From Myxococcaceae bacterium (GTDB taxonomy: Bacteria; Myxococcota; Myxococcia; Myxococcales; Myxococcaceae), in NCBI GenBank assembly GCA_044223505.1, contig JBGALX010000012.1, positions 1 through 26,173 on the forward strand: a DNA stretch of 26,173 nt, read 5' to 3'. Below are positions 3,330 to 25,178 of the stretch, piece after piece (positions within the stretch are counted from its first letter, which is position 1; every line of letters starts with the position of its first letter). A program made the position numbers and the translations under genes. The notes below the pieces were generated by a model. That model searched no databases. It worked only from the letters and a program-made list of their open reading frames with translations, and was not told where the DNA came from.

Positions 3330-3338
3330 CGCCGGCTC

Positions 3339-4532
3339 TCAGCCGCCGATGCGCTGGTCTGCCGGCAGCTTCCAGTCCGGTGGCCGCGCGTTGCGCGGCA
3401 TCGGCCCCGCGCTGACGTTGGCCTTCAGAACGACGCCCGCAGCGCCGGTCACGCCGTTGGAGCTCGTGAGCTCGAAGGGGCAGCTCCCTGCGAAGACGTA
3501 GTGGTCGGTGGCGACCCTCACGTCGAGGCGCCCCGTCTGCTCGTTGCGCTTCACCTCGAGTACGCGCAGCCCGTCGGAGACGCCTCCGTTGTCCGTGAGC
3601 CCGTAGCTGCCGTCGGCGCGGAGCAGAACTCCGAGGTTGAACGAGGCGCTCCCCTCGGTGCGGACGCCCGTGAGCGCTTCGAACGTATCCCAGCGGTTGG
3701 CCGAGATCCGGTACTCGCCCGCCGGCAGCAGGTCGCTGACCGTCGCGGCCTTGGGCTGCTCGCCGTGGATCAACCGATCGAGCGTCGACGTCGAAGAGGT
3801 CGCGCCGCCCCGCTGCCACTGCTGCGTCACTTCGACGGTGCCGTCTTGCTTGATGACGCCCTCGAGCCGTGCGCCGTGCTCGTAGTACCGCCAGCTCCCG
3901 GTGGTCCACGCGCCCCACAGCGTGCCCTCGCGGTCGAGCTTGAACGCCACGTCTCCGTTCGGGCGCCGCTCGACGTGCGCGTGCTCCCAGCCCTTCATGA
4001 GCAGCTGGTTGATGGCGCTCTCGACGGTCGAGTCGCTCAGCGTGCTCGGCGCCGGCCGCGTCGCGTCGATGCCCGAAGCCAACCCCGTGATTCGCGCGAA
4101 CGTGAGGCGGGCTTGCGTCGAGGGGGTCGCTCCACTCGCGAGCGCCGCGTTCCACGCCTCGACGATGGCCGCCAGCTCGCCGGCGTCGATGGCCCCGTCA
4201 GCGCCGCGCGCGATGACCTCGGCCTGCAGCAGCACCGGCTCCGAGAGCACCGCGCCCGTCAGAAAGGCTCGAACTCGCCCTGCGCCGCTCGGCGCCGGGT
4301 CACCCAGCGCGAGGCTCGGCAGCGGCGTGACGGCTCCGGCCGGAGTCGTCAGCAGCACGCGGCTGTCAGCGCTCGTCGCGTTGAACGCGTCCGCGGCCGT
4401 TGCAGGCATGGCTGCCGTCGCAGGCGCCGCCGCCGGGGCCACGGGCGTCACTGCGGGCGGTGTCACAGCGACGAGGCTGCGGGGCGGGGCCTGCGGCAGG
4501 TCGATGGGCATTCGCGGCCAGATTGCAGCCAC
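3339..4532 (-). CDS. hypothetical protein (Pro/Ala-rich N-terminus; no domain recognised)
   Basis: 397-aa ORF with high GC3 along its whole length. Start is GTG at 4532, or ATG 21 nt downstream. It is co-oriented 74 bp downstream of the phosphoesterase gene, so likely co-transcribed. It converges with the DUF2330 gene; the two stops are 9 bp apart. Confidence 0.6.
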   Translation of the reverse strand: MAAIWPRMPIDLPQAPPRSLVAVTPPAVTPVAPAAAPATAAMPATAADAFNATSADSRVLLTTPAGAVTPLPSLALGDPAPSGAGRVRAFLTGAVLSEPVLLQAEVIARGADGAIDAGELAAIVEAWNAALASGATPSTQARLTFARITGLASGIDATRPAPSTLSDSTVESAINQLLMKGWEHAHVERRPNGDVAFKLDREGTLWGAWTTGSWRYYEHGARLEGVIKQDGTVEVTQQWQRGGATSSTSTLDRLIHGEQPKAATVSDLLPAGEYRISANRWDTFEALTGVRTEGSASFNLGVLLRADGSYGLTDNGGVSDGLRVLEVKRNEQTGRLDVRVATDHYVFAGSCPFELTSSNGVTGAAGVVLKANVSAGPMPRNARPPDWKLPADQRIGG

Positions 4533-4606
4533 CGTGCCCTCTGCACGCGGTGCAACTCTCGGGTGTTGCGCGCCGAAGCGCGCACGTCGTCACACGACAG
4601 CGCACG

Positions 4607-5128
4607 TCACAGCGAGAGCTCGGCCTGGGCGACCTGCAGCAGCTCGTCGCCCTCGAGCGAGTGGAGCCGCGCGCGGATCAGCGTCGCAGAGACCTCGAGC
4701 AGCGCCGCGCTGCGCAGCAGCTTGAAGCGCTTCTTTCCCGCGCCCCCCGGGTTCACGAACAGCCGCCCGCCGTGCTCGACCAGCACGCCCTTGTGGCTGT
4801 GGCCGCTGACCACGACGCGCGGGCTCTCGGCCTGCAGCAGAAACTGCACCTTGATGGTCGGCTCGTCGGGCCGCCCCAGCTCGTGCACGACGAGCACCGG
4901 CACCGAGCCGATGCGCTCGACGCGCGCCGCCGGCAGCTCTCGCGCCCACGGGCCGGTGTCGTTGTTGCCCGCGACCGCGCGCACGGGAGCAATCTCGGAC
5001 AGGCGCGTGAGCACCGCGGGCGCGCCGACGTCGCCGGCGTGGAGGATGAGCGAGACGCCCTCGAACAGCCGCGTGAGCTTCTCGTCGAACATGCCGTGCG
5101 TGTCCGAAACGACGCCGACCTTTTCCAT
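4607..5128 (-). CDS. YfcE/MJ0936-type metallophosphoesterase (calcineurin-like, Metallophos_2)
   Basis: MEKVGVVSDTHG...ILHAGDVG...VAGNNDTG...VVSGHSHKG carries all four signature metal-binding motifs (DxH, GD, GNHD/E, GHxH). The ATG at 5128 is residue 8 of ORF 4607..5149. Confidence 0.85.
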   Translation of the reverse strand: MEKVGVVSDTHGMFDEKLTRLFEGVSLILHAGDVGAPAVLTRLSEIAPVRAVAGNNDTGPWARELPAARVERIGSVPVLVVHELGRPDEPTIKVQFLLQAESPRVVVSGHSHKGVLVEHGGRLFVNPGGAGKKRFKLLRSAALLEVSATLIRARLHSLEGDELLQVAQAELSL

Positions 5129-6613: not shown

Positions 6614-7297
6614 TTAGCACACCCAGCGGAAACCGACGCCCCGCACCGTCTTCAGCTCGAAGCCCGCCTCGCCCTTCTTCACCGTGAGCTTCTTCTTCAG
6701 CGACGAGACGAAGTTGTCGACCGTGTGCAGGTCGACGACGACCTCGCCCCAGACGCGGTCGAGAATCTCGTCGCGGCTCAGCACCCGGCCGCCGCTCTCG
6801 AGCAGCATGACGAGCAGGTCGAACTCTTTGCGCGTGAGCTCGACGGGCCCGCTCGGGCCCGTCACGCTGCGCGTCGCGACGTCGACGCTGAACGGGCCGA
6901 AGCGGTGCTGCGTCGTCGCCGAGCCCTCGGCGGGCCCGCGGCGCACCAGCGCAGCGATGCGCGCATAGAGCTCGCGCAGGCGGTACGGCTTCGCGAGGTA
7001 GTCGTCGGCGCCGGCGTCGAAGCCGCGCACCAGGTCTTCTTCGAGGCTGCGCGCCGTGAGCATCAGCACGCGGGCCGGCAGCTTCTTCTCACGCAGCCGC
7101 TTGCAGAACGCGTAGCCGTCGCCGTCGGGCAGCATGAGGTCGAGCACCACGACGTCGGTCGGCGCGCTCTCGAGCGCCTTCCACCCCTCGGCGACCGAGG
7201 CCGCGGTGCGCACGGCGTAGCCCTGCTCCTTCAGGTTGTCCTCGAGCGTCAGGCGCAGGTTCGCGTCGTCTTCGACGATGAGGACGGAGGAGGCCAT
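6614..7297 (-). CDS. OmpR/PhoB-family response regulator (receiver plus winged-helix)
   Basis: LIVEDD...VVLDLMLPDGDG...LTARSLEEDLVRGFDAGADDYLAKPY forms the receiver domain. The C-terminal Trans_reg_C-like region reads ...LTRKEFDLLVMLL...RDEILDRVWG... Confidence 0.9.
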   Translation of the reverse strand: MASSVLIVEDDANLRLTLEDNLKEQGYAVRTAASVAEGWKALESAPTDVVVLDLMLPDGDGYAFCKRLREKKLPARVLMLTARSLEEDLVRGFDAGADDYLAKPYRLRELYARIAALVRRGPAEGSATTQHRFGPFSVDVATRSVTGPSGPVELTRKEFDLLVMLLESGGRVLSRDEILDRVWGEVVVDLHTVDNFVSSLKKKLTVKKGEAGFELKTVRGVGFRWVC

Positions 7298-7319
7298 GCA
7301 CCTGCAGTTGTATCGGAGT

Positions 7320-7358
7320 CCCCTCTCCCCTCGTAGGGGAGAGGGACAGGGTGAGGGG
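7320..7358 (+). repeat. REP-like GC-rich palindromic element, copy A (CCCCTCTCCCCTCGTAGGGGAGAGGGACAGGGTGAGGGG)
   Basis: An 11-bp stem (CCCTCTCCCCT/AGGGGAGAGGG, loop CGT) followed by GGGTGAGGGG. It lies 22 nt upstream of the response-regulator ATG (on the minus transcript). It is identical to copy B over 39 nt except for 1 mismatch. Confidence 0.6.
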
Positions 7359-7394
7359 CGACAGCGGGCGGTTCGCTCATGCGTTCAGCTTCTC

Positions 7395-10300
7395 TCAGCG
7401 CTCAACTGCCCCCTCACCCCGGCCCACTCGCCTACGAGGAGAGAGGGTGCGCCTCTTCGTGACGAGCAGGAGCGCCGCCAGCAGCAGCGCTCCGGGCCCC
7501 GACGTGCAGCCGCAGCCCTTGCTCGGCTTCGACGTCGTCGTCACCTTGAACGTGCAGGTGCCGGCGTTGCCCGAGTGGTCGATGGCCGTGACCGTGACCG
7601 TCGTCTCGCCCGCGGGGAACAGGCTGCCGCTCGCGTGGTCGACCAGCACCAGCGGGCTCGCGTCGCCGTCGTCGGTGGCCGACACGCCGAACTGCACGAC
7701 GCCGCCGGCCTCGCTCGTGCCCTCGACGCTCGCGTCCGCGGGGCACATCGGCACGGGCGCCTTCGTGTCTTTCACCGTCACGAGGTGCCGGCACGACGCC
7801 GCGTTGCCCGCGCCGTCGGTCGCGGTGTGCGTCACCGCCGTCGCGCCGAGCACGAACGGGCCGCTGCGCGGCATCGTGTCGACGCCCGGAGTCGCCTCGA
7901 CGTTGTCGGTCGCCGTCGCCGAGGTCACCGTCACCATCGTGCCGCCGGGAGAGGTCGCCTCGACCCCCTGGTCGGCCGGGCACGTCACCACCGGCGGCGT
8001 CACGTCGCGCTTCAGCGTCGTCGTCACGGTCGTCATGCCGCCGGCGCTCGTCACCGTGCAGCTGAACGGCCGGCCCGCGGTGTCGTCGGTCAGCACCGTG
8101 CCCTCGCAGCCCGGCCCCAGCACCGCCGTGCTCTCGGGCTCGTCGACCACGAAGCGCAGCGTGACGTCGGACGTGTAGAAGCCGTTGCGGCCTGTGGTGC
8201 CCGTCACCATCGCGGTCACGACCGGCGGCGTGGTGTCGACCTCGTACACCCAGAGCTCTTCGTCGCCGTCGAGGTCGGTCGCAGAGAAGTACACGCGCGA
8301 GCCGACGCGCCCGAAGTTGCGCGGCAACGAGTCGGGAACGCCGGCCGCGATGTCGGTCACGCGCCGCGTACCCAGGGCCGTGCCGTCGCTGCGCCACAGC
8401 TCGATGCCCGCGCCGTCGTTGCCGTTCGCCATGAAGAGCACCTCGTTGCCGACGGCGAAGAGGTTCGCCGGGCTCGAGTCGGTGGGGCCCGGGGCGAGGT
8501 CGATCGCCATCGTGCCGGCGACCGTGCCGTCGCTGACCCAGAGCTCGCGGCCCATGCCCGGGGCGACGCCCGAGAAGAACACCTTCGAGCCCGCCGTCAC
8601 CAGCGCCCCCGACGGTGTCACCGCCTGCGCGACGCGCAGCGTGTTCGCCGCGGTGCCGTCGCTCGCCCAGACGTCGGGCACCGAGACGAAGAACACGCGG
8701 TCCGTAGTGCCCACCATCGCCGCGAGCGCCGGCAGGCTGCCGGTGCCCGCCACGAGGTCCGCCACGAGCGACGCCGTCGTGCCGTCGGTGACGTACAGCT
8801 CGGTGCCGGTCGCCGCCGTGGTCGCGAAGAAGAAGACCCGGTTCCCCGCCCGAGTCAGGAGCGAGGGGTTGCTGCCCACGGCGCCGGGGTTCAAGTCTGC
8901 GATGCGGCGCGTGCCCGCCTGAGCGCCATCGGAGAACCACGGCTCGGCGCCCGAGGCTCCGTCGTTCGCGACCGTCACGAGGCCCGTGGGCAGCGCGACG
9001 AGCGGCGGGCTCGAGCTGAAGCCCGACGTGGTGCCGGTGGCGGCCTCGGCCGCGAGACGCGTGCCGGCCAGCGTGCCGTCGCTGCGCCACAGCTCGGTGC
9101 CGGCAGCGGCGCTGCTCGCGGCGAAGTAGAGGTTGCCGTTGAAGACCGTCGGCGCTCCGACCGAGCTGGGGAGCGGGTCTGGGGAGCCGAGGGTGAGCCG
9201 GTCGGTTCCGTACATCGCCGTGCCGAAGCGGATGACGAGCCGATCGCCGAGCACGAAGAGCGACGAGATGACCGACAGGCCGAGCATCGACGTGAGCTGA
9301 CGCGTCGACGCGGTCGTGCCCTTCGTCTCGAACAGCTCGTAGCCGAGGTTGTGCGGGTTCGCGCCGAAGAGCGCGCGGTCGCCGTCGGCGGTGATGGCTA
9401 CGGGCAGCGACGACGCGGTGACGCCGTACATGTCGCGCACGAGCCGCTTGATGCCGAACGCGCTCACCGTCCACAGCTCGTCGCCCGAGCTGCCGTCGTT
9501 GCCGGCGACGTAGATGGCGCCTCCGGTGACGCCGACCGACTCGACCTGATCGGTGGTGAGGCCGACGTCGGTGAACGCTCCGAACGCGCGCAGCGAGAGG
9601 AGGCGGCCGCCGGTGTTGATCAGCATCGCGCTCGGCTCCGACAGGTAGCGCACGGCGCCGTTCAACCCGCGAGGGCCGGGGTTCAGGTCGGCCATCGGCG
9701 TCACCGTCGAGCTGCTGGAGCTGACCTGATAGACGTCGGCCGGCATGTCGTTGCCGCCGAGCACGCAGTAGACGGTCGAGCTGATCTCACCGCACGCGCG
9801 CGGCGTCGACGACGCAGGGCCCGGGTTGATGTCGTAGGCCGTGACGGCGCCGCCGACGGTGTCGTAGCGGAAGAGCTCGTTGCCGGCAGGGCCGTCGCCC
9901 GCGAAGTAGACCGAGAACGTCTGCGTGGCCAGGATCTGCATCGGCGAGGTGCCGACCGACGCGATGGTCGAGAGCCGCACCGGTGCGGTGGTTCCGTCCC
10001 AGCGCCAGAGCTCCGACCCGTTCGTGGGGTCGCTCGCGGTGAAGTAGAGGAAGCTGAACAGCGGCGTGAACCCCGAGGGGCTCGAGCTCGCGAGCCCCGG
10101 CGCGAGGTCGGCGACGAGCGTCGTGCCGGCCGCCGTGCCGTCAGTGGCGTACAGCTCGCTGCCGCTCGCGCCGTTCGCGGTGAAGACGACGCGACCCGAG
10201 AACGTGGCCCACTCCCGCGGGTTGCTCGAGCCCGTGAGGTTCAGGTCCGCGAGCCGCACGGTGCCCGCAGCCGTGCCGTCGGTGCGCCACAGCTCGATGT

Positions 10301-10760
10301 CGGTGGCGATGCCGCCGCCGAAGAACACGAAGCCGTTCGACGAGATGCCCGGCTCGCTGTTGAAGTTGATGTTCACGCCGGAAGCCGCGCCGGGCTCGAG
10401 GTCCTTCAGCAGGCGCGTGCCGGCGGCGGTGCCGTCGCTGATGAAGAGCTCGCGCCCGACGTCAGGGCGCGTGGCGGCGAACACGACCTCGTTGCCGATG
10501 GCTCCGATGGGGTTCGGCTGCGAGCTCGCCGTGCCCGGGTTCACGTCGGCGACCCGGCGCGTGCCGATGCCCGTGCCGTCGGTCACCCACAGCTCGGCAC
10601 CGAACGCGTCGACGCCCTGGAAGAACGTGCGCGACCCGGCGGTGACGAAGAAGTTCGGCCGGCCGCTCTTCGTCGAGGTCTCTGGGTTGAGGTCGGCGAC
10701 GCGGCGTGGGTTCGCCGCACCCACCAGCGGGACGAGGAGCAGCAGAAAGGCGTGGCGCAT
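7395..10760 (-). CDS. large secreted surface protein: about 14 ELWxxDGT-type repeats, three HYR (hyalin-repeat) domains, C-terminal MYXO-CTERM sorting tag
   Basis: Signal peptide MRHAFLLLLVPLVGAA. Repeats such as ELWVTDGTGIGTRRVADVNPG and ELWRSDGTLAGTRL recur. CPADQGVEATSPGGTMVTVTSATATDN-like HYR units appear three times. The C-terminus GCGCTSGPGALLLAALLLVTKRR fits the MYXO-CTERM pattern (Cys motif, TM helix, basic tail). Confidence 0.85.
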   Translation of the reverse strand: MRHAFLLLLVPLVGAANPRRVADLNPETSTKSGRPNFFVTAGSRTFFQGVDAFGAELWVTDGTGIGTRRVADVNPGTASSQPNPIGAIGNEVVFAATRPDVGRELFISDGTAAGTRLLKDLEPGAASGVNINFNSEPGISSNGFVFFGGGIATDIELWRTDGTAAGTVRLADLNLTGSSNPREWATFSGRVVFTANGASGSELYATDGTAAGTTLVADLAPGLASSSPSGFTPLFSFLYFTASDPTNGSELWRWDGTTAPVRLSTIASVGTSPMQILATQTFSVYFAGDGPAGNELFRYDTVGGAVTAYDINPGPASSTPRACGEISSTVYCVLGGNDMPADVYQVSSSSSTVTPMADLNPGPRGLNGAVRYLSEPSAMLINTGGRLLSLRAFGAFTDVGLTTDQVESVGVTGGAIYVAGNDGSSGDELWTVSAFGIKRLVRDMYGVTASSLPVAITADGDRALFGANPHNLGYELFETKGTTASTRQLTSMLGLSVISSLFVLGDRLVIRFGTAMYGTDRLTLGSPDPLPSSVGAPTVFNGNLYFAASSAAAGTELWRSDGTLAGTRLAAEAATGTTSGFSSSPPLVALPTGLVTVANDGASGAEPWFSDGAQAGTRRIADLNPGAVGSNPSLLTRAGNRVFFFATTAATGTELYVTDGTTASLVADLVAGTGSLPALAAMVGTTDRVFFVSVPDVWASDGTAANTLRVAQAVTPSGALVTAGSKVFFSGVAPGMGRELWVSDGTVAGTMAIDLAPGPTDSSPANLFAVGNEVLFMANGNDGAGIELWRSDGTALGTRRVTDIAAGVPDSLPRNFGRVGSRVYFSATDLDGDEELWVYEVDTTPPVVTAMVTGTTGRNGFYTSDVTLRFVVDEPESTAVLGPGCEGTVLTDDTAGRPFSCTVTSAGGMTTVTTTLKRDVTPPVVTCPADQGVEATSPGGTMVTVTSATATDNVEATPGVDTMPRSGPFVLGATAVTHTATDGAGNAASCRHLVTVKDTKAPVPMCPADASVEGTSEAGGVVQFGVSATDDGDASPLVLVDHASGSLFPAGETTVTVTAIDHSGNAGTCTFKVTTTSKPSKGCGCTSGPGALLLAALLLVTKRRTLSPRRRVGRGEGAVER
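7409..7447 (-). repeat. degenerate inverted copy (A') of the same element family (CCCCCTCACCCC-N11-CCTACGAGGAGAGAGGG)
   Basis: Same arrangement as copy C but with an 11-bp insertion. It overlaps the last codons of the ELWxxDGT gene (...RRRVGRGEGAVER stop). Its CCCCTCACCCC is complementary to the GGGTGAGGGG of copy A, 50 nt away. Confidence 0.4.
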
Positions 10761-10777
10761 CGCCCACGCCTACTGAT

Positions 10778-12265
10778 TCATGGCCCGCCGCGCAAACGGC
10801 GCCGCTGCAGGGCCGCGAGCGCGAGCAGCACCAGCGGCAGGCCCGCGGCCGCGCTGCAGCCCTTCGGCGGGGCCGGCGTCAGCCACACGTGGCTCGTCAC
10901 GGTGCGCGGGTAGCCGCCGACCCAGACCTCGGCGCGCACGCGCGTCTCGCCCTGCGCGGGCGCGGTGAACGTGCGCTCGGCGTCGAACGCATCAGCGGTC
11001 ACGTCGACGGCGGGCTCGGCCTTGCCGTTCACGACCCAGACGAGCTTCGCGCCGGAGCCGCCGGTGACGCGGGCCTTCAGCGTCGGCTCGGCGGCGGCGA
11101 CGGTGTCTCCGACGGTAGCGTCGCCCGCGGTCAGCTCGACCATGGGGTCGTCGGGGCCCTGCAGCTTCACGACCGTGCGGCCCTTGCGCACGGCCTCGAC
11201 GACGGCGTCGACCGAGAGCTCGCGCGCGAACACCATCGTCGTCGGGTTGCCGATGGGGCTCATGCTGCCGACGCCGGCGGTGTGGTCGTCGCTGCCGCCG
11301 ACCGCCGCGACGTGCAGGCCGAGGTCGAGCACGCGGTCCCAGAAGCGAATCGCCTCGCGCGTGAACAAGAGGCCCGTCGCGTCCCAGCCGCCGGTGCCGA
11401 TCTCGATCGCGCCGATGGAGTCGCGCGGCAGGGCGTGGCTCCACTTGCAGCCGATGCAGGCGTCGCCGAGGTCGAGCACCGGGTGGTTGATGGAGAAGAC
11501 CGCGCCCTGCTGCACGAGCGCCGCGGCGATGCCGTTCATGGTGACGCCGTTGAAGCCGACGCGGTGGTCGACCCACCTCGTGGCGCCGATGCCGTTCGCG
11601 TGGCCGCCGTACGTGGTCAGCTCGACGCCGGGCACGAGCAGCACGTCGGGCGAGCGGCCCTGCGCGTCGCCCATCAGCTCGAGCTGCGAGCTCGTGTTGT
11701 GGTCCGAGAGCTCGATGAAGTCGAGGCCGCGCGACTTCGCCAGCGCCACCATCGCGTCGAACGTCGGCTTCGCGTCGCCGCTCTCGCGCGAGTGCGTGTG
11801 GAAGTCGCCGGCGTACCAGCGCGCGGCGCTCTTCAGCGGGGCCGGCGCGGCCCACGCTCTGCGCTGCGGCTCGTCGGCCAGCGTCGCCACGTCGCGCAGC
11901 GCGACGGTGACGCGGTAGCCCGGCGTGCCCGAGGGCGACTTCGCCTTGCCGGCGTAGACCTTCCACGTGCCGGGCGTGATGGGGCCCGTGAGGTAGCTGC
12001 GCGAGCTCGCCTTCACGCCCGTCGTGATGGGCTCGGTGTTGCCGCCGCCGTAGCCGCGGAAGCCGTCGGGGCCCTCGAGCCCCCAGTCGATGACGGCGCC
12101 CGCCTCGAGCGTCTCGTGTTCGATGCGCAGCTCTGCCGTGCCCGCCGGGACCTCGAACGGAATCGTGATGAAGTCGGCGTCTGCTGGGAATTCGCCTTCG
12201 ATGGGCGGAAGGGCGAGCGCGCTCGTGCCGAAGAAGACGGCGAGGACGCAGAGGAGGCGCGGCAT
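10778..12265 (-). CDS. secreted PHP-domain metallohydrolase (CehA/McbA-like) with C-terminal MYXO-CTERM tag
   Basis: The ATG at 12265 is residue 124 of ORF 10778..12634 (the upstream part is an R-rich artefact). Signal peptide MPRLLCVLAVFFGTSALA. PHP motifs: AGDFHTHSRESGDA and FIELSDHN. C-terminus PPKGCSAAAGLPLVLLALAALQRRR. It ends 17 bp before the ELWxxDGT gene start. Confidence 0.8.
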   Translation of the reverse strand: MPRLLCVLAVFFGTSALALPPIEGEFPADADFITIPFEVPAGTAELRIEHETLEAGAVIDWGLEGPDGFRGYGGGNTEPITTGVKASSRSYLTGPITPGTWKVYAGKAKSPSGTPGYRVTVALRDVATLADEPQRRAWAAPAPLKSAARWYAGDFHTHSRESGDAKPTFDAMVALAKSRGLDFIELSDHNTSSQLELMGDAQGRSPDVLLVPGVELTTYGGHANGIGATRWVDHRVGFNGVTMNGIAAALVQQGAVFSINHPVLDLGDACIGCKWSHALPRDSIGAIEIGTGGWDATGLLFTREAIRFWDRVLDLGLHVAAVGGSDDHTAGVGSMSPIGNPTTMVFARELSVDAVVEAVRKGRTVVKLQGPDDPMVELTAGDATVGDTVAAAEPTLKARVTGGSGAKLVWVVNGKAEPAVDVTADAFDAERTFTAPAQGETRVRAEVWVGGYPRTVTSHVWLTPAPPKGCSAAAGLPLVLLALAALQRRRLRGGP

Positions 12266-12332
12266 GGCGCATTCTCGGCGGAGGTGCAGGTTCTGTTTTT
12301 CGGCTCGTGCGTAACTGCTCGCTACACACTCG

Positions 12333-12360
12333 CCCCTCACCCCTACGAGGGGAGAGGGGA
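12333..12360 (-). repeat. REP-like element copy C (inverted orientation; CCCCTCACCCCTACGAGGGGAGAGGGGA)
   Basis: Its reverse complement equals copy A with the central 12 bp removed. It overlaps the HK stop codon (which encodes ...RRTSPLPS stop) and is about 70-95 nt upstream of the PHP gene start. Confidence 0.5.
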
Positions 12361-14058
12361 CGTTCTTCGGAACGTGACAGCGAAGGTCGTGCCGTCGGGA
12401 CTCGAGCGCTCGATGGCGATGCTGCCGCCGTGCATCGCCATGACGCGACGGCACAGCGCGAGGCCCAGGCCCGTGCCTGCGCGCGGTACGGCTTTGAGCC
12501 GCACGAAGTCTTCGAACACGCGCTCGTGCTCGCTGTCGGGAATGCCGACGCCGTTGTCGCTGACGCGAAGCGTGGCGGTGGCGGCGTCGTAGCTGAAGCG
12601 CACCTCGACCGGGTCGCGCACGTTGTAGCGGCACGCGTTGCGCAAGAGGTTCAGCAGGCAGAGCTTCAAGAGCTCGGCGTCGGCCTCGAGCACGGCGCTC
12701 TCGAAGCCCTCGAACGTGAGCTTCGCCTTCGGCGCGTCGTCTTCGAGCACGCGCACGAGCGACGCGAGCGGCACGTGCGAGCGCTGCGGCTCGAGCCGGC
12801 CCTTGTCGAGCCGGTTGAACGACAGGATGTTCTCGACCAGCGCCGTGAGCCCGTCGACCTCGGCGACGAGGCGCTGCGGGTAGTCCTTCGCCTGCGCGTT
12901 GCCCTCGAGGCGCGTCTCGAGCGTCTCGGCCATCACCCGCATCGACGCGAGCGGAGTCTTCAGCTCGTGGCTCACCGCCGCCACGAAGTCCTCCTTCATC
13001 TCGACGAAGCGCTGCTTGCGCCGCTGCGTGACGTGCACGAGGCCGGCGGCGAGCAGGCCGAGCGCTCCGACGAGGCCGAGCAGGCCGGCCTTGAGGCGGA
13101 AGAGGGCGCGGGCGCGGGAGACGGCGGCCTCCCAGTCGGCCGGCTCGACGAGGCCGAGCGCGCTCATCTGGTCGCGCACCTCGGCGCGCTCACGCCCCAG
13201 GTCGACGCGCAGCCCGCGCACGAGGTTGCCCTCGCGCTCGGCGTACCAGCCCTCGAGCTGCGAGGGCCCTTCCGGCAGCGCGTCGACGTCGGGGAGCTGT
13301 GCGTCGCTCACGGGCTCTTCCGCGCAGCGCGCCTCGAAGTCGTCGGCGGGCACCTGCGCGTGGCGCGAGAGCAGCGCGACGCGCGCGCACAGCCTCGCGA
13401 GCGTCTCGGGCGGCAGCTGGGTGCGCCCGCGCAGGAGCCTTCGCTGCAGCCCGTCTTGCCCCTGAAAGCCGTCGCGCATCAGGCCGCGCAGCAGCGCCGG
13501 GTTGCCGCGCGGGAGCAGCAGCTCGACCACCTGCGTGACGGCCTCGGCGTCGTGCTCGACCGGAGTGCGCCAGCGCGCCCGGTGCGCGAGCAGGCCCCGC
13601 ACCGCGCGCTCGAGCTCGGCGTCCGTCTTGGCGTCGCGCACCGCCTTCACGAACGGCAGCTCGCTGGCCTCGTCGTCTTCCGCGAGCGCGCCGGAGATGG
13701 GCTGCGCGGGCGAAGGGGGCAGCACGCGCACGCCGTCGCTGATCAGCAGCGTGCCCTCGGCGTCGATGAGCGGGTCCTTCGCGGCGGCGTCGATGCGGGG
13801 CAGGGCGGCCGCGAGGGCGTCGTGCAAGCGGCGCTGCAGCGCGGTGGCCGCGTACTGCTCGAGCGCGCGGCGGCGCCCGTCGATCTCTTCGAGGGCGTCG
13901 TCGCGTTCGCGGGCGAAGACCCGGGCCAGGCCTCCGAGGAAGAGGAGGAGGACCGCCGCGACGGCCGCGAGCGCCCCGAATGCGCGCCCCCTCTCCCCTC
14001 GTAGGGGAGAGGGACGGGGTGAGGGGGCCTGCCGGCGCTCTTCGGCCCTCTGCCTCAC
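12343..14058 (-). CDS. sensor histidine kinase (two TM helices, about 270-aa periplasmic domain, HisKA plus HATPase_c)
   Basis: H-box FVAAVSHELKTPL. N, G1 and G2 boxes: NLLRNACRYN, DNGVGIP, GTGLGLALC. GTG start at 14058 is 1 nt after the VWA gene stop (translational coupling). Residues about 11-24 are encoded by repeat copy B. Confidence 0.85.
   Translation of the reverse strand: MRQRAEERRQAPSPRPSPLRGERGRAFGALAAVAAVLLLFLGGLARVFARERDDALEEIDGRRRALEQYAATALQRRLHDALAAALPRIDAAAKDPLIDAEGTLLISDGVRVLPPSPAQPISGALAEDDEASELPFVKAVRDAKTDAELERAVRGLLAHRARWRTPVEHDAEAVTQVVELLLPRGNPALLRGLMRDGFQGQDGLQRRLLRGRTQLPPETLARLCARVALLSRHAQVPADDFEARCAEEPVSDAQLPDVDALPEGPSQLEGWYAEREGNLVRGLRVDLGRERAEVRDQMSALGLVEPADWEAAVSRARALFRLKAGLLGLVGALGLLAAGLVHVTQRRKQRFVEMKEDFVAAVSHELKTPLASMRVMAETLETRLEGNAQAKDYPQRLVAEVDGLTALVENILSFNRLDKGRLEPQRSHVPLASLVRVLEDDAPKAKLTFEGFESAVLEADAELLKLCLLNLLRNACRYNVRDPVEVRFSYDAATATLRVSDNGVGIPDSEHERVFEDFVRLKAVPRAGTGLGLALCRRVMAMHGGSIAIERSSPDGTTFAVTFRRTSPLPS
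13987..14026 (+). repeat. REP-like element copy B (CCCCTCTCCCCTCGTAGGGGAGAGGGACGGGGTGAGGGGG)
   Basis: One mismatch to copy A over 39 nt. It lies within the first 24 codons of the HK ORF, just downstream of the VWA stop. Confidence 0.6.
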
Positions 14059-14059
14059 T

Positions 14060-15940
14060 TCACCTCAAGACCGGGATGCGGTCGAAGTCCATCTGGGCGA
14101 GCGGCACCTCGCGCTCGAAGCGGTCGGGCCGCTTGTCGAGGCGCTTGGCGGTGAGGAGCAGCACGTGCAGCTCCTGCGACTGCTTGCGCTCTTTGAGGCT
14201 CGGCGGCAGCGTCTCCCACGTGGCGATGAGCTCGTCCCACGAGAGGTTGCGCGCCCAGTAGCTGCCGCGCAGCTTCTCGGCGAAGCCCGCCGCCACCAGC
14301 GACATGCGCGTCGGGCCGCTGACCGCCGCGAGGCTGTCGCGCACGACCTCCATCGGGAGCGCCTTCTCGACGAGCGCGCTCTGCCCGCCCTGCGGCTGCT
14401 TGAAGCGGGCGCGGAACGTGGCGAAGAACTTCGGGCTGCGGCTCTTGAGCTTCACCTCGTAGATGGCGGTGACCGCGTGGCCGGCGCCGAGCTCGCCCGC
14501 ATCGACGCGGTCGTTCGCGAAGTCTTCTTTCTTCAGGGCGCGGTTCTCGAAGCCGAGCAGGCGGTAGCGCTCGACGGCCTCGGGGTTGAACTCGAGCTGC
14601 AGCTTCACGTCCTTCGCGATGACCTCGAGCGTGCCGGTGAGCTGCTCGACGAAGATGCGGCGGGCCTCGTCGAGCTTGTCGACGTACGCGTAGTGGCCGT
14701 CGCCCTGGTCGGCGAGGCGCTCCATGAGCACGTCGTTGTACGAGCCCATGCCGAAGCCGACGGTGGTGAGCGTGATGCCCTCGCTCGCCTTGCCCTTCAC
14801 GCGGGCGTAGATGCCGTCGGCGCTGGTGACGCCGTTGTTGGCGACGCCGTCGCTGCAGAGGATGACGCGGTTGATGCCGCCGCCCTTGAAGTGGCGCAGC
14901 GCGACCGTGTAGCCGAGCTCGAGGCCGGCCTGCACGTTGGTGCTGCCCTCGCTGCGCAGCGACTGCAGCGCGGCGTAGATGGTCTCTTTCTTCGAGGCGG
15001 GCGTCGGCTCGAGCACGGTGTGCGCGCGGTCGCCGTAGACGACGACGGCGACGGTGTCGTCGGGCCGCAGCTGCTCGGTGAGCATCGTCATCGCCTGCTT
15101 CGCCATCGGCAGGCGGTTCGACTGGTCCATGCTGCCCGAGACGTCGATGACGAACGTGAGGGCCGCGCTCTTGCGCGCCTCGGCCTTCACCTCGCGGCCT
15201 TTCAGGCCGACGTGCAGCACGTGGTAGCCCTTGCGGTACGGCGAGGGGAACGCCTCGACCTGCACCGCGAACGCCTCGCGCTCGGGAGCCCGGTAGCCGT
15301 AGTCGAACGCGTTCACGAACTCTTCGACGCGCACCGCGGCCTCGGGCGGCAGCTGGTCGCGCTCGAGGTAGCTGCGCGCCAGCGTGTAGCTGCCGGTGTC
15401 GACGTCGGCCGCGAACGTCGAGATGCGCTCGGCCGCGGCGTCGATGGTCGGGTTCACGCCGTAGTGCTGCAAGAGCACGCCCGACTCTTCGGCCTCGGTC
15501 TTCTCGTTCTTCGGTGCCGGGCGCTTGCTGGCCTCGAGGGTGCCCTGCGTGACCCGGTGCGGGCTGTCGGCGGGCTTCGGGTCGGGGCTCGGCTCGGCGG
15601 GCGGGGTGACGGTGATGGCTTCGGTCGTGGTAGGCGGAGGCGGCTTCTCGGGCGCGCCGACTGCGCTGGGGGTGGAGGTCGTCGAGCCGGTGGCAGGGCC
15701 GAACGAGTCGGGGGCCTTCGCGAGCTTGCTGTCCTTCACCTTCTTGCGCGCCTCGGCGTACTCACCGTTGGGCTTCGTGAGCTCACCCTCGAGGGTCTCG
15801 CCGCTGAAGTCGATGCTCTTTTCCTCGGGCTTGCTGTCGCGCGTCGCGGTGTAGCGGCCCTCGGACTTCGACGCCGGCGGGGCGCGGTCCATCATCGCGC
15901 ACGACTGCAAGACCAGCACTGCGAGCAGGAGCTTTTTCAT
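14060..15940 (-). CDS. von Willebrand factor type A (VWA) domain protein, YfbK-like, with N-terminal signal or lipoprotein peptide
   Basis: The ATG at 15940 is residue 14 of ORF 14060..15979: MKKLLLAVLVLQSC. MIDAS motif FVIDVSGSMDQ...LCSDGVANNG. Pro/Thr-rich linker. N-terminal ...VDTGSYTLARSYL...EEFVNAFDY region, as in YfbK-type proteins. Confidence 0.8.
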   Translation of the reverse strand: MKKLLLAVLVLQSCAMMDRAPPASKSEGRYTATRDSKPEEKSIDFSGETLEGELTKPNGEYAEARKKVKDSKLAKAPDSFGPATGSTTSTPSAVGAPEKPPPPTTTEAITVTPPAEPSPDPKPADSPHRVTQGTLEASKRPAPKNEKTEAEESGVLLQHYGVNPTIDAAAERISTFAADVDTGSYTLARSYLERDQLPPEAAVRVEEFVNAFDYGYRAPEREAFAVQVEAFPSPYRKGYHVLHVGLKGREVKAEARKSAALTFVIDVSGSMDQSNRLPMAKQAMTMLTEQLRPDDTVAVVVYGDRAHTVLEPTPASKKETIYAALQSLRSEGSTNVQAGLELGYTVALRHFKGGGINRVILCSDGVANNGVTSADGIYARVKGKASEGITLTTVGFGMGSYNDVLMERLADQGDGHYAYVDKLDEARRIFVEQLTGTLEVIAKDVKLQLEFNPEAVERYRLLGFENRALKKEDFANDRVDAGELGAGHAVTAIYEVKLKSRSPKFFATFRARFKQPQGGQSALVEKALPMEVVRDSLAAVSGPTRMSLVAAGFAEKLRGSYWARNLSWDELIATWETLPPSLKERKQSQELHVLLLTAKRLDKRPDRFEREVPLAQMDFDRIPVLR

Positions 15941-16008
15941 GGTCGCGATGGTGCCTTCGGGGCGAGAGCAGTGTTTCACCCCCGGCTCATCTGATCTTCA
16001 CGGAATCA

Positions 16009-18670: not shown

Positions 18671-19552
18671 CTATTCCTGCGCCCAGCCGGTGATGGGCTG
18701 CGGCGCTGTGCTGGTGCCGCCGAAGTAGAAGCCGGCGGCCCACTTGAGGCTGCTCGTCGAGCTCGAGCAGCGTCGGGGGAAGGTGGCGCTGACGTCGAGC
18801 GCTCGCGGGCCGACCGTTCCGGTGACGTGGAAGCGGTACTCGGTCGTCGTGATGGTGAGCTCGTACTGCAGCGGGACCTCGGCGCGCAGCTCGCTCTCGT
18901 CGAGCGTGAAGAGCCCCGCCGCCGGGTACAGGTGCGTGCCGCCGTTGTTCGCGTACTGCGCGACCTCGAGCACCGGAGGCGTGAGGTCGGGCCGCCAGCG
19001 CCAGCCGAACATCAGCCCGTCGGCCGAGAGGTCGAGCTGCCCGCAGTCCGAGAGGCCGGGCAGCTTGTTCCAGTCGAGCTGGTCGTCGGGCTGCACCGGG
19101 TTCGTGAGCACGTACATCGCGCTCGCGTCGAAGATGAACCGGTAGGTTCGCGCGCTCACCGTCACGAGGCCCGCGAGCGGCAGCCGCGCCGCGCCGTTCT
19201 GCGTGACGGTCGCCGCGTGAGCCCCGACAGAGAGCGTGTACTTCGCCCAGCCAGGGTGGCCCGGGACCGAGGTGCCGGCGTCGGTGACGGTGCCGGCGTC
19301 GAGGCCTGCGTCGGTGACGGTGCCGGCGTCGAGGCCCGCGTCGGTGACGGTGCCGGCGTCGAAGCCTGCGTCGTTCACCGGCTCGGCGCCCGCATCCGTG
19401 CCCGCATCGTCGTGGGCGTCGCGGCCCGCGTCTGCGAGCACCGCGCCTGAGTCGAGCGCCGGCGCAGCGGCACCGGCGTCGGGAGCGCCCGGGCTGCCGC
19501 ACGCGGCCGCCATCAGGGTCCCCGCGAGCATCGCCGTCGCCGAGCGCTTCAT
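18671..19552 (-). CDS. lipoprotein with D-A-G-(T/L) repeat linker and an unknown C-terminal domain
   Basis: The ATG at 19552 is residue 34 of ORF 18671..19651: MKRSATAMLAGTLMAAACGS (lipobox). Linker DAGFDAGTVTDAGLDAGTVTDAGLDAGTVTDAG. A hairpin CCGCT-CAGA-AGCGG follows the stop. Confidence 0.7.
   Translation of the reverse strand: MKRSATAMLAGTLMAAACGSPGAPDAGAAAPALDSGAVLADAGRDAHDDAGTDAGAEPVNDAGFDAGTVTDAGLDAGTVTDAGLDAGTVTDAGTSVPGHPGWAKYTLSVGAHAATVTQNGAARLPLAGLVTVSARTYRFIFDASAMYVLTNPVQPDDQLDWNKLPGLSDCGQLDLSADGLMFGWRWRPDLTPPVLEVAQYANNGGTHLYPAAGLFTLDESELRAEVPLQYELTITTTEYRFHVTGTVGPRALDVSATFPRRCSSSTSSLKWAAGFYFGGTSTAPQPITGWAQE
19271..19380. repeat. 30-bp tandem repeat (about 3.5 copies of CGGTGACGGTGCCGGCGTCGAGGCCTGCGT) inside the lipoprotein CDS
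   Basis: Direct tandem copies visible at 19281-19370 with 1-2 substitutions per copy. They encode (DAGTVTDAGL) three times. The repeat is in frame, so copy-number change would alter linker length only. Confidence 0.7.
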
Positions 19553-20761: not shown

Positions 20762-21592
20762 TCACTGTTCGTTGAGAGGACAGCTCGATGGATCCGGGAG
20801 GAGACTCCCCTGGGTGGTGGTGAGCAGGTGAGCAGGTGAGGTGGTGACCGGGCTCCGCAGGCTCGCGGCGGGAGAAGAAATTCTTCCACCGCCCTGAGCC
20901 TTCGAGCCCCCGGTGAGCAGGTGACGCGGTGAGGTCACCAGGGGTCGAATGAGCGTCGACTGAGAGTCGCATCGCGCGGCAGCGGCCATCGAGCCCCCGG
21001 TGAGCAGGTGACGCGGTGAGCAGGTCACCAGGGGTCGAATGAGCGTCGGCTGAGAGTCGCATGGCGCGGCAGCGGCCATCGAGCCCCCGGTGAGCAGGTG
21101 ACGCGGTGAGCAGGTCACCAGGGGTCGAATGAGCGTCGGCTGAGAGTCGCATCGCGCGGCAGCGGCCATCGAGCCCCCGGTGAGCTGGTGACGCGGTGAG
21201 CAGGTCACCAGGGGTCGAACGAGCGTCGGCTGAGAGTCGCATTGCGCGGCAGCGGCCATCGAGCCCCCGGTGAGCAGGTGACGCGGTGAGCGGGTGACTG
21301 GGGCTCTGCGTAGCTCGGGGGTTCGAGAAGAGAGTCTTCCACGGCTTGGATCCTCTCCCCGGGGTTGTGTCAGGGAGCTCGTCTCATCACCCGTGCCGGT
21401 ACAACCACACCTCCGCGGGTTCGAGGCGAGGAACATCACGGCGCCCTTGCAGTGCAGCGGAATCGCGCGGCACCTGCGCCGCCGCTTGAACTCACGCACC
21501 ACTACCAGAAGGCAGCCGGAACACGTTCCCCGAGTGCGGCACGGCGAGAAGTCGCCGCTCTCCGGGTCCACCGTGAGGATCCGGAACTTCAC
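20762..21592 (-). CDS. questionable ORF: GTG-initiated Cys-rich N-terminal segment of about 60 aa that continues without a stop through the 90-bp array
   Basis: GC3 is about 88% over the first 57 codons (VKFRILTVDPESGDFSPCRTRGTCSGCLLVVVREFKRRRRCRAIPLHCKGAVMFLASNPRR), then falls to about 55-80%. Both alternative frames hit stops within 12-17 codons after codon 60. All 5 inter-copy substitutions in the array are nonsynonymous in this frame. Confidence 0.2.
   Translation of the reverse strand: MKFRILTVDPESGDFSPCRTRGTCSGCLLVVVREFKRRRRCRAIPLHCKGAVMFLASNPRRCGCTGTGDETSSLTQPRGEDPSRGRLSSRTPELRRAPVTRSPRHLLTGGSMAAAAQCDSQPTLVRPLVTCSPRHQLTGGSMAAAARCDSQPTLIRPLVTCSPRHLLTGGSMAAAAPCDSQPTLIRPLVTCSPRHLLTGGSMAAAARCDSQSTLIRPLVTSPRHLLTGGSKAQGGGRISSPAASLRSPVTTSPAHLLTTTQGSLLPDPSSCPLNEQ
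20904..21300. repeat. 90-bp tandem array, about 4.4 copies (87, 90, 90, 90 and about 40 bp); unit GAGCCCCCGGTGAGCAGGTGACGCGGTGAGCAGGTCACCAGGGGTCGAATGAGCGTCGGCTGAGAGTCGCATCGCGCGGCAGCGGCCATC
   Basis: Unit starts at 20904, 20991, 21081, 21171 and 21261. Five substitutions and one 3-bp indel separate the copies. Each unit holds the internal dyad GGTGAC-N11-GTCACC and a direct 11-mer GGTGAGCAGGT occurring twice. All three plus-strand frames contain stops in every unit. Confidence 0.85.
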
Positions 21593-23095: not shown

Positions 23096-24193
23096 TCAGG
23101 GCGCGGGGCTGACCACCCCGTCGAGCACCGCCGGCTTCGCGCTCACGATGCGAATGCGCCCCGGCGCGCCGCCACCGCCACCGCCCGCACCGTTGCCGTT
23201 CGGGGCCGCGACCGCCGCGCCCTGCAGCGAGCCGCCGCTGCCGCCGACCGTCGAGCCGCAGTCGGCCGAGAGCCCACCGCGCGCCGGCGCCGCCGCGAGC
23301 GTGCCGTCTTCCCCCGGCAGGCCGTCGGAGCTGAAGCCGCCGCACGCCGTCGTGCCGCTGCCGCCGCCGCCGCCGTTCGCCGCGAGCACGCCGCGCACCT
23401 GCACCTCGTTCGCCTGCAGGAAGATGGCGCCGCCCGAGCCGCCGCCGCTGCCCGCTGCGGCCGTGTTGCAGATTTTTCCGCCGGTGCCGCCGCCTCCGCC
23501 CGCGTTGACGCCGCCGCTGTCGCCGACGCGAATCGCTCCGGCGGCGAAGAGCTGCACCGCGCCTCCGCCCGCGCCGCCCGGCTGCGGAGCGCAGAGGCGG
23601 AAGCCCCCGACGCCGCCCTTCGAGCCGCCGCTCAACACGCTGAGCTCGGCGTCGCCGTAGGTCGCGCCGCCCTGGCCGTTCGCTCCCGAGGCGTTGCTGC
23701 CCGCGGCGCCCGCCGCCGAGTGACCCGCACCTCCGCCGCCCGCCGACTCGTCGGTCGCGAGCCCGTCGGAGCCCGCGCCGCGGTTCGTGGCCGCTCCCGC
23801 GCCGGGGACGTCGCGCTTGCCGGAGGCGTCGAGCACTCCGCCGAGCTCGATGTCGGTCGCCGCGACGACGACGAGCGGGCGCGTGCCGATGACTCGCACC
23901 GCGCTGCCCGCAGCCACGGTGAGCCCGCGCACGTGCAGCACCGCGAGCTCGGGCCCGAACGGCTCGTGCGGCCGCACGTCGAAGGTCACGCCTGAAGGCA
24001 GCGCCATGCCGCGAACCTCGGGCACCGTCGTGTCGACGACCACCGTGCCGAGCGACAAGTCTGCCGTGCCCGCGAACTGCGCGTCGACCGGCAGGTGCGG
24101 CACCGCGATGCTCCCGCCGAGGCGAGAGAGCGACTCCCAGTCGAGGCAGCCCGTCAGCAGCAGCGCCGCGGCCATGAACTCTCGCGCCCTCAT
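23096..24193 (-). CDS. glycine-rich lipoprotein (possible beta-helix or Gly-rich repeat protein)
   Basis: The ATG at 24193 is residue 19 of ORF 23096..24247: MRAREFMAAALLLTGC (lipobox). It has long GGxGGxG runs. The overlapping 646-aa ORF 23082..25022 is an R/G low-complexity artefact. Confidence 0.65.
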   Translation of the reverse strand: MRAREFMAAALLLTGCLDWESLSRLGGSIAVPHLPVDAQFAGTADLSLGTVVVDTTVPEVRGMALPSGVTFDVRPHEPFGPELAVLHVRGLTVAAGSAVRVIGTRPLVVVAATDIELGGVLDASGKRDVPGAGAATNRGAGSDGLATDESAGGGGAGHSAAGAAGSNASGANGQGGATYGDAELSVLSGGSKGGVGGFRLCAPQPGGAGGGAVQLFAAGAIRVGDSGGVNAGGGGGTGGKICNTAAAGSGGGSGGAIFLQANEVQVRGVLAANGGGGGSGTTACGGFSSDGLPGEDGTLAAAPARGGLSADCGSTVGGSGGSLQGAAVAAPNGNGAGGGGGGAPGRIRIVSAKPAVLDGVVSPAP

Positions 24194-24255
24194 CGCGGCC
24201 CTCTCGATGAGCATCGCCGCGAGTGCACAGGCGGCGCAGTGTGCCACGCCGGCTC
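24171..24255. repeat. copy 1 of a duplicated 85-bp segment (88% identical to 25179-25263)
   Basis: On the plus strand it would read MNSRALIAALSMSIAASAQAAQCATP, a signal-peptide-like sequence. Here it overlaps the start and upstream region of the minus-strand lipoprotein gene. Confidence 0.5.
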
Positions 24256-25110: not shown

Positions 25111-25178
25111 GTCGATGGCTCCCAACCGCCCGTTCTTACGAGCGTCCGAGCCGGGCGTAGGCCTTGCTCAACGGAGCC

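Follow-up and report, generated by a model that had tools for sequence, protein, structure and literature searches.

Introduction

The repeats examined here have close relatives that are known under several names. TMECO is the BoxC repeat of the 1990s and also the PIT element of Hoyne and Maher, and it follows the pattern CCCTCNCCC-N3-6-GGGNGAGGG-N3-GGGNGAGGG (Holder et al. 2015, PMC4666352). According to the same study, E. coli K-12 carries 23 copies, all intergenic and five as inverted pairs, 3610 copies are spread across 262 proteobacterial genomes, and E. coli loci bearing TMECO vary more than controls (PMC4666352). In vitro, the element forms a class II purine-motif intrastrand triplex, a type of triplex that RNA does not form, and mobility activities were 'never found' near the elements (PMC4666352). 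The E. coli members lacked promoter and terminator activity in the work of Hoyne and Maher 2002, as it is cited in PMC4666352, and the same E. coli sequences have been described as a G-quadruplex/hairpin/duplex switch (Kaplan et al. 2016, PMC5100583). Here we describe four copies of such an element, A, A', B, and C, in a stretch of 26,173 nucleotides from a Myxococcaceae bacterium (contig JBGALX010000012.1; the whole stretch is hereafter the window), where they lie at the gene boundaries of a minus-strand operon encoding a histidine kinase and a response regulator. For the source organism, the copy count covers the window.

The original prediction for this locus was a family of REP-like palindromes (repetitive extragenic palindromes). 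The copies are true interspersed palindromic repeats at cistron boundaries, as that prediction held, but they are not genome-specific and belong to the BoxC/PIT/TMECO/HPGQ family. We consider it likely that they are non-autonomous copies of this family, two intact, one decayed, and one internally deleted, which inserted at gene boundaries, and that the family provides the termini of cassettes carrying a DUF559 gene.

Window copies are members of the BoxC/PIT/TMECO/HPGQ family

In the element, which is about 40 nt long, a short loop separates a C-rich arm from its pairing partner, a purine arm; a 3-nt linker follows, and then a G block that is the mirror of the purine arm. The copies and their associated segments are as follows.

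7320..7358, plus strand: copy A, intact, with CCCCTCTCCCCT, CGT loop, AGGGGAGAGGG, ACA linker, and mirror block GGGTGAGGGG; profile E 1.3e-13; intergenic, with the response-regulator ATG 22 nt away
7359..7408, no strand: spacer between A and A', holding the stop codon of the ELW/HYR MYXO-CTERM gene (7395-7397); tails-inward inverted pair with A and A'
7409..7447, minus strand: copy A', decayed inverted copy CCCTCTCTCCT-CGT-AGGCGAGTGGG-CCG-GGGTGAGGGGG (minus strand); profile E 4e-7
12333..12360, minus strand: copy C, hairpin-only derivative CCCCTCTCCCCT-CGT-AGGGGTGAGGGG, third block absent; profile E 7e-6
13987..14026, plus strand: copy B, intact, with ACG linker, in histidine-kinase codons 11-24 (APSPRPSPLRGERG); profile E 1.7e-12
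14043..14055, minus strand: remnant of an older element, AGGCAGAGGGCCG, a purine arm and CCG linker at the VWA-kinase junction

All four predicted copies were seen on reading the sites. Exact matches to the 26-mer core CCCCTCTCCCCTCGTAGGGGAGAGGG lie at 7320-7345 and 13988-14013, and an inverted match with one mismatch lies at 12334-12359; the chance expectation for the core is zero (100 shuffles). A and B are equal at 38/39 nt, in agreement with the predicted identity bar one base, and their sole difference lies in the linker (ACA in A, ACG in B); the 39-mer of B, 13988-14026, reads CCCCTCTCCCCT-CGT-AGGGGAGAGGG-ACG-GGGTGAGGGG. A repeat finder recovered A'/A as an inverted pair with 87% complementarity and a 51-nt spacer, together with the B/A' and C/B relations. 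The 11-bp stem of A' carries three mismatches. C equals A/B minus 12 nt (AGAGGGACRGGG) and arose by slippage deletion between two similar G blocks, which leaves a hairpin with a T.T mismatch. The remnant and B form a second tails-inward pair with a 16-nt gap.

A hairpin at 25063-25110 had been named as a related element. It has only the 11-mer CCCCTCACCCC in common with the copies, and since its profile E is 25 (site 25094-25105) and its fold z is about 0, we treat it as a non-member.

A pattern scan for CCCTCTCCCCT-NNN-AGGGGAGAGGG, with one genome per species, retrieved at least 107 loci with the 25-mer core in at least 10 phyla, with a locus GC content of 44-73%. The lineages among the matches listed include Planctomycetota, Verrucomicrobiota, Desulfobaccales, Syntrophobacterales, Myxococcota, Alpha- and Gammaproteobacteria, Chloroflexota, Ignavibacteria, Acidobacteriota, Omnitrophota, and Bipolaricaulota. 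In nearly all listed loci GGGTGAGGGG stands 2-4 nt past one arm, and the loop and linker vary while the three blocks are constant. Since the same core with invariant blocks is found in many phyla, the window repeats are not a genome-specific REP. An nhmmer profile built from 66 copies of other phyla recovers all four of them with the E values given above.

The published pattern is largely retained. The 5' C-rich 9-mer CCCTCNCCC is represented by CCCTCTCCC in A, B, and C and by the degenerate CCCTCTCTCC in A'; the first G block GGGNGAGGG by GGGAGAGGG in A, B, and C (plus strand); and the second G block, after a 3-nt loop, by ACA+GGGTGAGGG in A, ACG+GGGTGAGGG in B, and CCG+GGGTGAGGG in A', while the 12-nt deletion removed it from C. 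The literal first spacer is 7 nt (CTCGTAG) against the published N3-6, and the structural loop is 3 nt (CGT), because C-G and T-A pairs lengthen the window stems to 11 bp; this is a variant of form, not of architecture. The CGT loop is lineage-specific and recurs in a related Myxococcaceae metagenome-assembled genome (MAG; locus L036). Like the described family (Bachellier et al. 1990s; Hoyne et al. 2000; PMC4666352; PMC5100583), the window elements have three blocks of near-identical sequence with variable loop and linker, occur as solos and as close inverted pairs on opposite strands, and sit at gene boundaries in variable or rearranged loci, with no known function or mobility gene. A'/A and remnant/B are tails-inward, as are 40 pairs at other loci. 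Three of the four window copies (B, C, and A') lie partly in coding sequence, whereas the E. coli copies were reported as always intergenic; the host is a myxobacterium of 71% GC, whereas Myxococcus xanthus is listed with a single copy; and the distribution found here extends well past the 262 proteobacterial genomes reported. The family is thus already described, and what is new is this host and a location partly inside genes.

GGGTGAGGGG is more than a second helix arm: in an intrastrand-triplex (or G-quadruplex) motif it is the mirror-repeat third strand. All ten triplets (10/10) of A and B conform to G*G-C, A*A-T, or T*A-T.

Copies are lineage-specific insertions that rewrote protein termini

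The operon comprises the following genes.

6614..7297, minus strand: OmpR-type response-regulator gene, downstream of the A'/A pair (Pfam/translation)
7395..10760, minus strand: ELW-repeat/HYR MYXO-CTERM protein gene, its C-terminal tail prolonged through A'
10778..12265, minus strand: PHP-like gene, weak Pfam match, real ATG at 12265
12343..14058, minus strand: histidine kinase gene, GTG start, with about 22 first and about 8 last residues element-derived
14060..15979, minus strand: VWA/YfbK gene, its stop codon 1 nt ahead of the kinase GTG

The placement of the copies relative to these genes is as originally predicted. A ends 22 nt upstream of the regulator start (ATG at 7297) and is the only intergenic copy. 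A' encodes part of the final 17 residues by which the ELW protein runs beyond its MYXO-CTERM motif (..LLLVTKRR-TLSPRRRVGRGEGAVER*). The kinase stop codon at 12343-12345 is a TAG within the loop of the C hairpin, which encodes the kinase C-terminus ..TFRRTSPLPS*, and B, directly after the VWA stop (14060-14062), encodes the kinase residues APSPRPSPLRGERG.

That these coding termini were invaded, as had been proposed, is borne out by comparison with relatives. A homologue search with the kinase returned one identical protein and a graded series of orthologues. None of the 12 aligned orthologous kinases (64-83% identity) has the 22-residue N-extension or the RRTSPLPS tail; they begin 3-10 residues ahead of the first transmembrane helix and finish at ..FALRF.

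Synteny was compared with two loci, L108 (a 421-kb JGI contig) and L109 (a Myxococcaceae MAG). The gene order in L108 is VWA-kinase-HYR-188 aa-regulator with junctions of 10-28 nt; in L109 the VWA and kinase genes overlap by GTGA, and no element was found in 19 kb of this locus. The VWA-kinase junction is empty in L109 and holds a half element in L108, GCGAGAGGG-CCG-GGGTGAGGGG, whose third block contains the kinase GTG; the window remnant AGGCAGAGGGCCG is common to L108 (AGGCGAGAGGGCCGGGGTGAGGGG) and missing in L109. The alignment of the window with L108 breaks precisely at the elements: between the kinase and HYR genes, C together with the PHP gene makes up an indel of 1.6 kb, and the A'/A region stands in place of the 188-aa gene of L108. 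The indel spans 10772-12380 of the window, and the kinase and HYR genes of L108 are 15 nt apart. Among the three loci, the PHP-like gene is found in the window only; L109 has a different 286-aa gene at this site and no HYR gene. The operon content is therefore fluid among relatives.

An intact copy particular to L108 separates its convergent Metallophos_2 and DUF2330 genes; at the same place L109 has 430 nt and no element. The window carries a segment of about 1.3 kb (3330-4616) between the DUF2330 and Metallophos_2 homologues, where L108 has 45 nt holding the element and L109 the 430 nt; the ORFs (open reading frames) of this segment gave no Pfam match.

In the cross-phylum sample, the element is depleted in ORF interiors (23% vs 60% for random positions of the same loci). 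Since the orthologous operons lack the elements and the kinase extensions, the window copies are lineage-specific insertions at synteny breakpoints, placed at permissive gene ends of a rearrangement-prone operon. The filled and empty sites are too diverged for insertion boundaries to be assigned at base level.

These comparisons also bear on a more trivial origin, namely that the similarity is conserved coding sequence of paralogous genes or a chance match between GC-rich sequences. Three of the four copies do overlap ORFs. However, they are translated in differing frames and orientations, giving SPLPS* in the kinase tail, PSPLRGERG in the kinase N-terminus, and LSPRRRVGRGEG in the ELW protein; A is intergenic, the orthologues are without these residues, and no chance match is expected. 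The likeness among the copies also ends abruptly at the 39-40-nt element borders, and with the differing frames and orientations this excludes coding paralogy. The element family therefore withstands this objection, to which we assign next to no probability.

The near-identity of A and B had further been read as a sign of protein-binding operators giving common control of the regulator and kinase genes; the OmpR-type regulator itself would be one candidate for the binding protein. The two copies do agree at 38/39 positions, and each is placed ahead of, or at the beginning of, one of the two signalling genes. B, however, is inside the kinase ORF in mid-operon; the same sequence stands beside unrelated genes in more than 10 phyla, including Planctomycetota, Verrucomicrobiota, and Chloroflexota; the two-component operons of L108 and L109 do without the elements; and OmpR-family regulators typically bind direct repeats, not G/C hairpins. 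Operators of this kind are very improbable. For practical purposes, both this operator model and the coding-paralogy model are excluded.

DUF559 genes are flanked by oriented elements

In an all-vs-all comparison of 1615 ORFs within 1.5 kb of the element at 105 loci, the sole recurrent neighbour family was DUF559 (PF04480; Pfam E 7e-43 to 8e-23), present in four loci of that clustering; no other ORF family appeared in more than four loci, and no Y1 transposase was recurrent. DUF559 is related to Vsr and has a PD-(D/E)XK nuclease fold (PMC1189080), PDB 3HRL is a structure that supports its nuclease nature, and in Caulobacter a DUF559-domain protein damages DNA in vivo (PMC12907096). We found no publication tying DUF559 or ycjD to BoxC/TMECO in a search that excluded most subscription journals.

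By tblastn, a DUF559 gene abuts the element in 6 of the 107 listed loci (L022, L024, L046, L049, L095, and L096), and in five of the six it is flanked on both sides. Upstream, the order is C arm, loop, purine arm, linker, and GGGTGAGGGG, followed after 10-110 nt by an ORF of about 110 codons; downstream, after about 15 nt, it is CCCCTCACCCC, linker, C arm, loop, and purine arm. This geometry is tails-inward, as in A'/A and the E. coli pairs, and many DUF559 ORFs run into the downstream element (..SPSPQPSPPSGERG).

The association was also examined from the side of the gene. We collected 80 DUF559 loci (L111-L190) from metagenome contigs by protein patterns alone (3 sequences). In this sample, for which element-associated proteins served as seeds and in which one subfamily may be over-represented, a canonical element lies at most 250 nt upstream of DUF559 in 30/73 loci, at most 250 nt downstream in 32/79, and on both sides in 22/72. 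Orientation is biased accordingly on each side, with 30:9 (plus to minus) upstream and 30:6 (minus to plus) downstream. The density of canonical elements is 1.99 per kb near DUF559 and 0.055 per kb at distances above 300 nt. A sequence-agnostic finder, which requires only a pyrimidine arm, loop, purine arm, linker, and mirror block, detects at least one correctly oriented motif at 56/72 loci and motifs on both sides at 38/72, with a density of 3.39 per kb near DUF559 and 0.071 per kb away (about 48-fold). Complete DUF559 units measure 397-463 bp.

Among the element-selected loci, there are 40 tails-inward and 21 tails-outward pairs. The tails-inward gaps are bimodal, at 10-48 nt and at 271-367 nt, the latter where the DUF559 gene sits inside. 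Annotated DUF559 genes are likewise flanked in Azospirillum, Deinococcus, Synechocystis B12, and Pseudanabaena (G6 variant), and the flanks are degenerate in N. gonorrhoeae. The DUF559 gene of E. coli K-12, ycjD (b1289), ends with ..SPSP* in a degenerate hairpin, CCCTCTCCC-TGAAA-GAGCGAGGGGG, and TMECO#9 follows about 130 nt downstream. This gene is present in 3378/5426 complete E. coli genomes and absent from 38%; in the ycjD-negative genomes, homology ends about 40 nt before the element.

Two side observations concern the arrangement of such loci. In E. coli K-12 (L110, 530-930, downstream of ycjD), the interval from the stop-codon hairpin to TMECO#9 holds a partial copy of the 3' end of ycjD (GAGACGGTGCTGGAGAATATTC..). 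In L160 (1370-1990; Ga0268299_1000314, from the same metagenome as L108), a roughly 120-nt composite, [inverted element]-spacer-[element], occurs as direct repeats on either side of DUF559, as if the gene were inside a duplicated repeat cluster. We also considered phages as vehicles of DUF559 cassettes and rejected them, as only 4 weak DUF559 matches were found in 50,697 phage records.

The third block follows a mirror rule

Where DUF559 loci lack the canonical element, they have variants with an identical block layout, such as CCTTCCCCC..GGGGGAAGG-NNN-GGATGGGGG, CCCTCCCCC..GGGGGAGGG-NNN-GGGTGGGGG, and TCCTCCCCC..GGGGGAGGA-NNN-AGGTGGGGG (loci L119-L126, L127, L129, L132, L137, L165-L168, L177, L179, and L188). 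In the pairs GGGGGAAGG/GGATGGGGG, GGGGGAGGG/GGGTGGGGG, and GGGGGAGGA/AGGTGGGGG, the third block mirrors the purine arm with one A->T change. Since the canonical arm GGGAGAGGG is its own mirror, it cannot separate a mirror block from a direct repeat, and the comparison was made on truly asymmetric purine arms beside DUF559, with a mirror defined as G->G and A->A/T with at most one mismatch. The block after such arms was a mirror only in 29 cases, a direct repeat only in 0, both in 1, and neither in 14.

An antiparallel purine-motif triplex needs such a mirror (G*G-C, A*A-T, T*A-T), whereas a hairpin, Watson-Crick pairing, and a G-quadruplex do not. This comparative, and hence indirect, support suggests that the three-block DNA fold is what selection maintains, and a triplex may form in vivo. 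The G-quadruplex/hairpin switch described for the E. coli sequences (PMC5100583) was rejected as less general than the triplex: the G-runs of GGGGGAAGG/GGATGGGGG, 5, 2, 2, and 5, still mirror each other, and some variants have poor quadruplex potential.

The mirror rule bears on the reading of the elements as cis-regulatory RNA, in which hairpins on the minus-strand mRNA would act as stabilisers, RNase barriers, attenuators, or occluders of translation initiation and would set differential expression of the kinase, PHP, ELW, and regulator genes. Every copy is at a cistron junction, A ends 22 nt ahead of the regulator ATG, and E. coli REP elements stabilise upstream mRNA. The predicted folds are also very stable. 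The minimum-energy RNA fold of A'..A is a single long A'-A hairpin of -91.1 kcal/mol (z -6.6), so the two-tier A'/A structure proposed earlier is merely an alternative to the lowest-energy prediction, and C is predicted to fold with -23.7 kcal/mol (z -3.8). However, the two orthologous operons compared do without the elements, and the element occurs in both orientations beside unrelated genes in more than 10 phyla. Its stems and third block are fixed while its loops vary, a mirror rule is meaningless for an RNA hairpin, and RNA does not form purine-motif triplexes. Neither T-tract terminators nor sigma-70-like promoters were found at the elements, the sole terminator-like site in 7000-14300 being at 8835-8856; Rfam gave nothing at gathering score, only sub-threshold matches to generic hairpin (miRNA) models; and the E. 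coli members were inactive as promoters or terminators in the cited report. A dedicated regulatory role of the elements in this operon is not supported, and we regard it as unlikely.

A selected role of the DNA structure itself should also be weighed. Holder et al. 2015 proposed that a triplex or G-quadruplex may stall replication or repair and promote local rearrangement, in which case the element would benefit the host and be selected, not merely tolerated. Consistent with this, the elements lie at operon breakpoints (the PHP indel, the ELW-regulator junction, and the variable convergent-gene junction of L108), E. coli element loci are more variable than controls, and the mirror covariation points to a three-block fold under selection. 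The same variability is, however, equally expected from insertion into permissive, already variable sites, second-order selection for instability would generally be weak, a stable triplex was undetected in vivo by footprinting in E. coli (PMC4666352), and the DUF559 flanking architecture indicates a selfish unit. A host-beneficial structure therefore seems distinctly unlikely to us.

Comparison with other repeat and nuclease systems

REPs are species-specific, whereas the BoxC-type stem sequences are conserved across phyla. The elements resemble the REP/REPIN-RAYT system in being short GC-rich palindromes that occur as solos and inverted doublets with strong RNA hairpins, in hundreds of copies at gene ends, and a single-copy small nuclease gene between cognate repeats follows the same logic as DUF559. 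They differ in having no conserved terminal GTAG, which is found here in the loop and in this lineage only, loops being variable elsewhere, and in the extra third mirror-repeat block. Moreover, RAYT is a tyrosine transposase of the IS200/IS605 type, whereas no Y1 transposase recurs within 1.5 kb of the element at the 105 loci and the flanked gene encodes a Vsr-like PD-(D/E)XK nuclease.

Miniature inverted-repeat transposable elements (MITEs) such as Correia/NEMIS and ERIC share the inverted terminal repeats around a short spacer, polymorphic insertion between relatives, and the potential for co-transcription and ORF extension. The A'..A span of 128 nt fits the usual description of a MITE (terminal inverted repeats, <300 bp, non-coding), and the bimodal size of the units, about 400-460 bp with the gene and about 90-130 bp without it, is also MITE-like. 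In contrast to MITEs, no consistent target-site duplication was detected at the ends of 11 complete DUF559 units, the putative autonomous form is without a recognisable transposase, and each BoxC-type terminal repeat forms a folded structure of three blocks by itself.

Rickettsia palindromic elements (RPEs) insert in-frame into protein-coding genes. As in the window, palindromic repeats are tolerated within ORFs and add a peptide at permissive positions; RPEs are, however, unrelated in sequence, longer, AT-rich, and located in ORF interiors, whereas only extreme termini are invaded here.

DUF559 has the PD-(D/E)XK fold of the Vsr type (very-short-patch-repair endonuclease), and a small nuclease gene set between copies of one DNA motif recalls free-standing homing-endonuclease genes. 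In contrast to these systems, a methyltransferase partner, an intron or intein setting, and a demonstrated cleavage site are all lacking in the DUF559 unit. Homing-type selfish behaviour of the unit would be conceivable by analogy.

Other repeats in the window

Several further repeats were noted. Nine to ten diverged repeats of about 64-68 nt, roughly 140-300 nt apart, at 8341-10630 are coding repeats of the ELW protein, not interspersed elements. A 90-nt tandem repeat with 4.5 copies and 96% matches occupies 20898-21295, and the only frame translated over it (20762-21592, minus strand) gives an implausible Cys/Arg/Pro-rich product. The segments 24161-24251 and 25169-25259 form a 91-nt direct repeat, 86% identical, which looks like the starts (ATG and a signal-peptide-like region) of two adjacent paralogous plus-strand genes. 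At 19271-19388, a 30-nt (10-codon) tandem repeat, GCCTGCGTCGGTGACGGTGCCGGCGTCGAG, is present in 3.3 copies and also has long imperfect inverted matches to 1435-1533.

Discussion

The DUF559 flanking together with the mirror covariation makes the window pairs look like gene-less, MITE-like derivatives of DUF559 cassettes. We propose the following sequence of events. One DNA strand of the element could fold into a hairpin with a third strand (purine-motif triplex) or into a G-quadruplex. The window copies came as two inverted pairs of the tails-inward kind, A'/A and remnant/B, together with C as a solo. They inserted at gene boundaries, where insertions are tolerated, lie at the rearrangement points of the operon, and gave the kinase and the MYXO-CTERM protein rewritten ends. 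Family elements would be the inverted terminal structures of cassettes of 0.4-0.46 kb that carry a gene for DUF559 (Vsr-like PD-(D/E)XK), and this unit of gene and repeats may be a selfish cassette, with the gene-less pairs A'/A and remnant/B and the solo C as its putative MITE-like derivatives. While the folded repeats are single-stranded in replication, transcription, or repair, DUF559 might act on them in trans and might thereby copy, move, or maintain them. Mobilisation of the window copies by DUF559 would be part of this scheme.

Several observations weigh against this proposal. By tblastn, the window, L108, and L109 are all without a DUF559 gene. Among 11 complete DUF559 units, the outer ends gave no consistent target-site duplication or clean excision footprint, and a clean empty ycjD site was not found in E. 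coli, where the region is replaced, not excised. The ycjD-negative E. coli genomes keep several near-identical copies of the element, with no obvious drop in number. The third blocks face outward in Azospirillum, Deinococcus, and Synechocystis B12. The seeding of the DUF559 sample and the footprinting result in E. coli, both given above, count on the same side. The coupling of DUF559 and the element is thus statistically solid as an association and unproven as a mechanism.

Beyond the window, the same data allow a wider proposal, which we put forward tentatively and with somewhat less than even confidence. BoxC/TMECO repeats may be the folded terminal inverted repeats of previously unrecognised selfish cassettes (about 0.4-0.46 kb) that carry only DUF559, the scattered pairs and solos may be their non-autonomous derivatives, and an intrastrand DNA triplex, not merely a hairpin, may be the selected substrate.

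What the insertions brought about in the operon is probably a set of side effects: two proteins gained new termini, the kinase start was displaced, and very stable intercistronic RNA hairpins arose. These hairpins may alter mRNA decay or coupling, and any effect of such strong structures on expression is most likely incidental. The elements account for the odd, non-conserved termini of the kinase and the MYXO-CTERM protein, for the shifted kinase start, and for an operon gene content unlike that of relatives, and they caution against taking such palindromes for operon-specific regulatory signals. BoxC/PIT/TMECO has been an orphan family since the 1990s, and DUF559/YcjD is a widespread nuclease-fold protein without a function; the oriented, cross-phylum association of the two makes both questions testable. 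If the wider proposal is true, it would provide a function for DUF559/YcjD and an explanation of a 30-year-old orphan repeat family.

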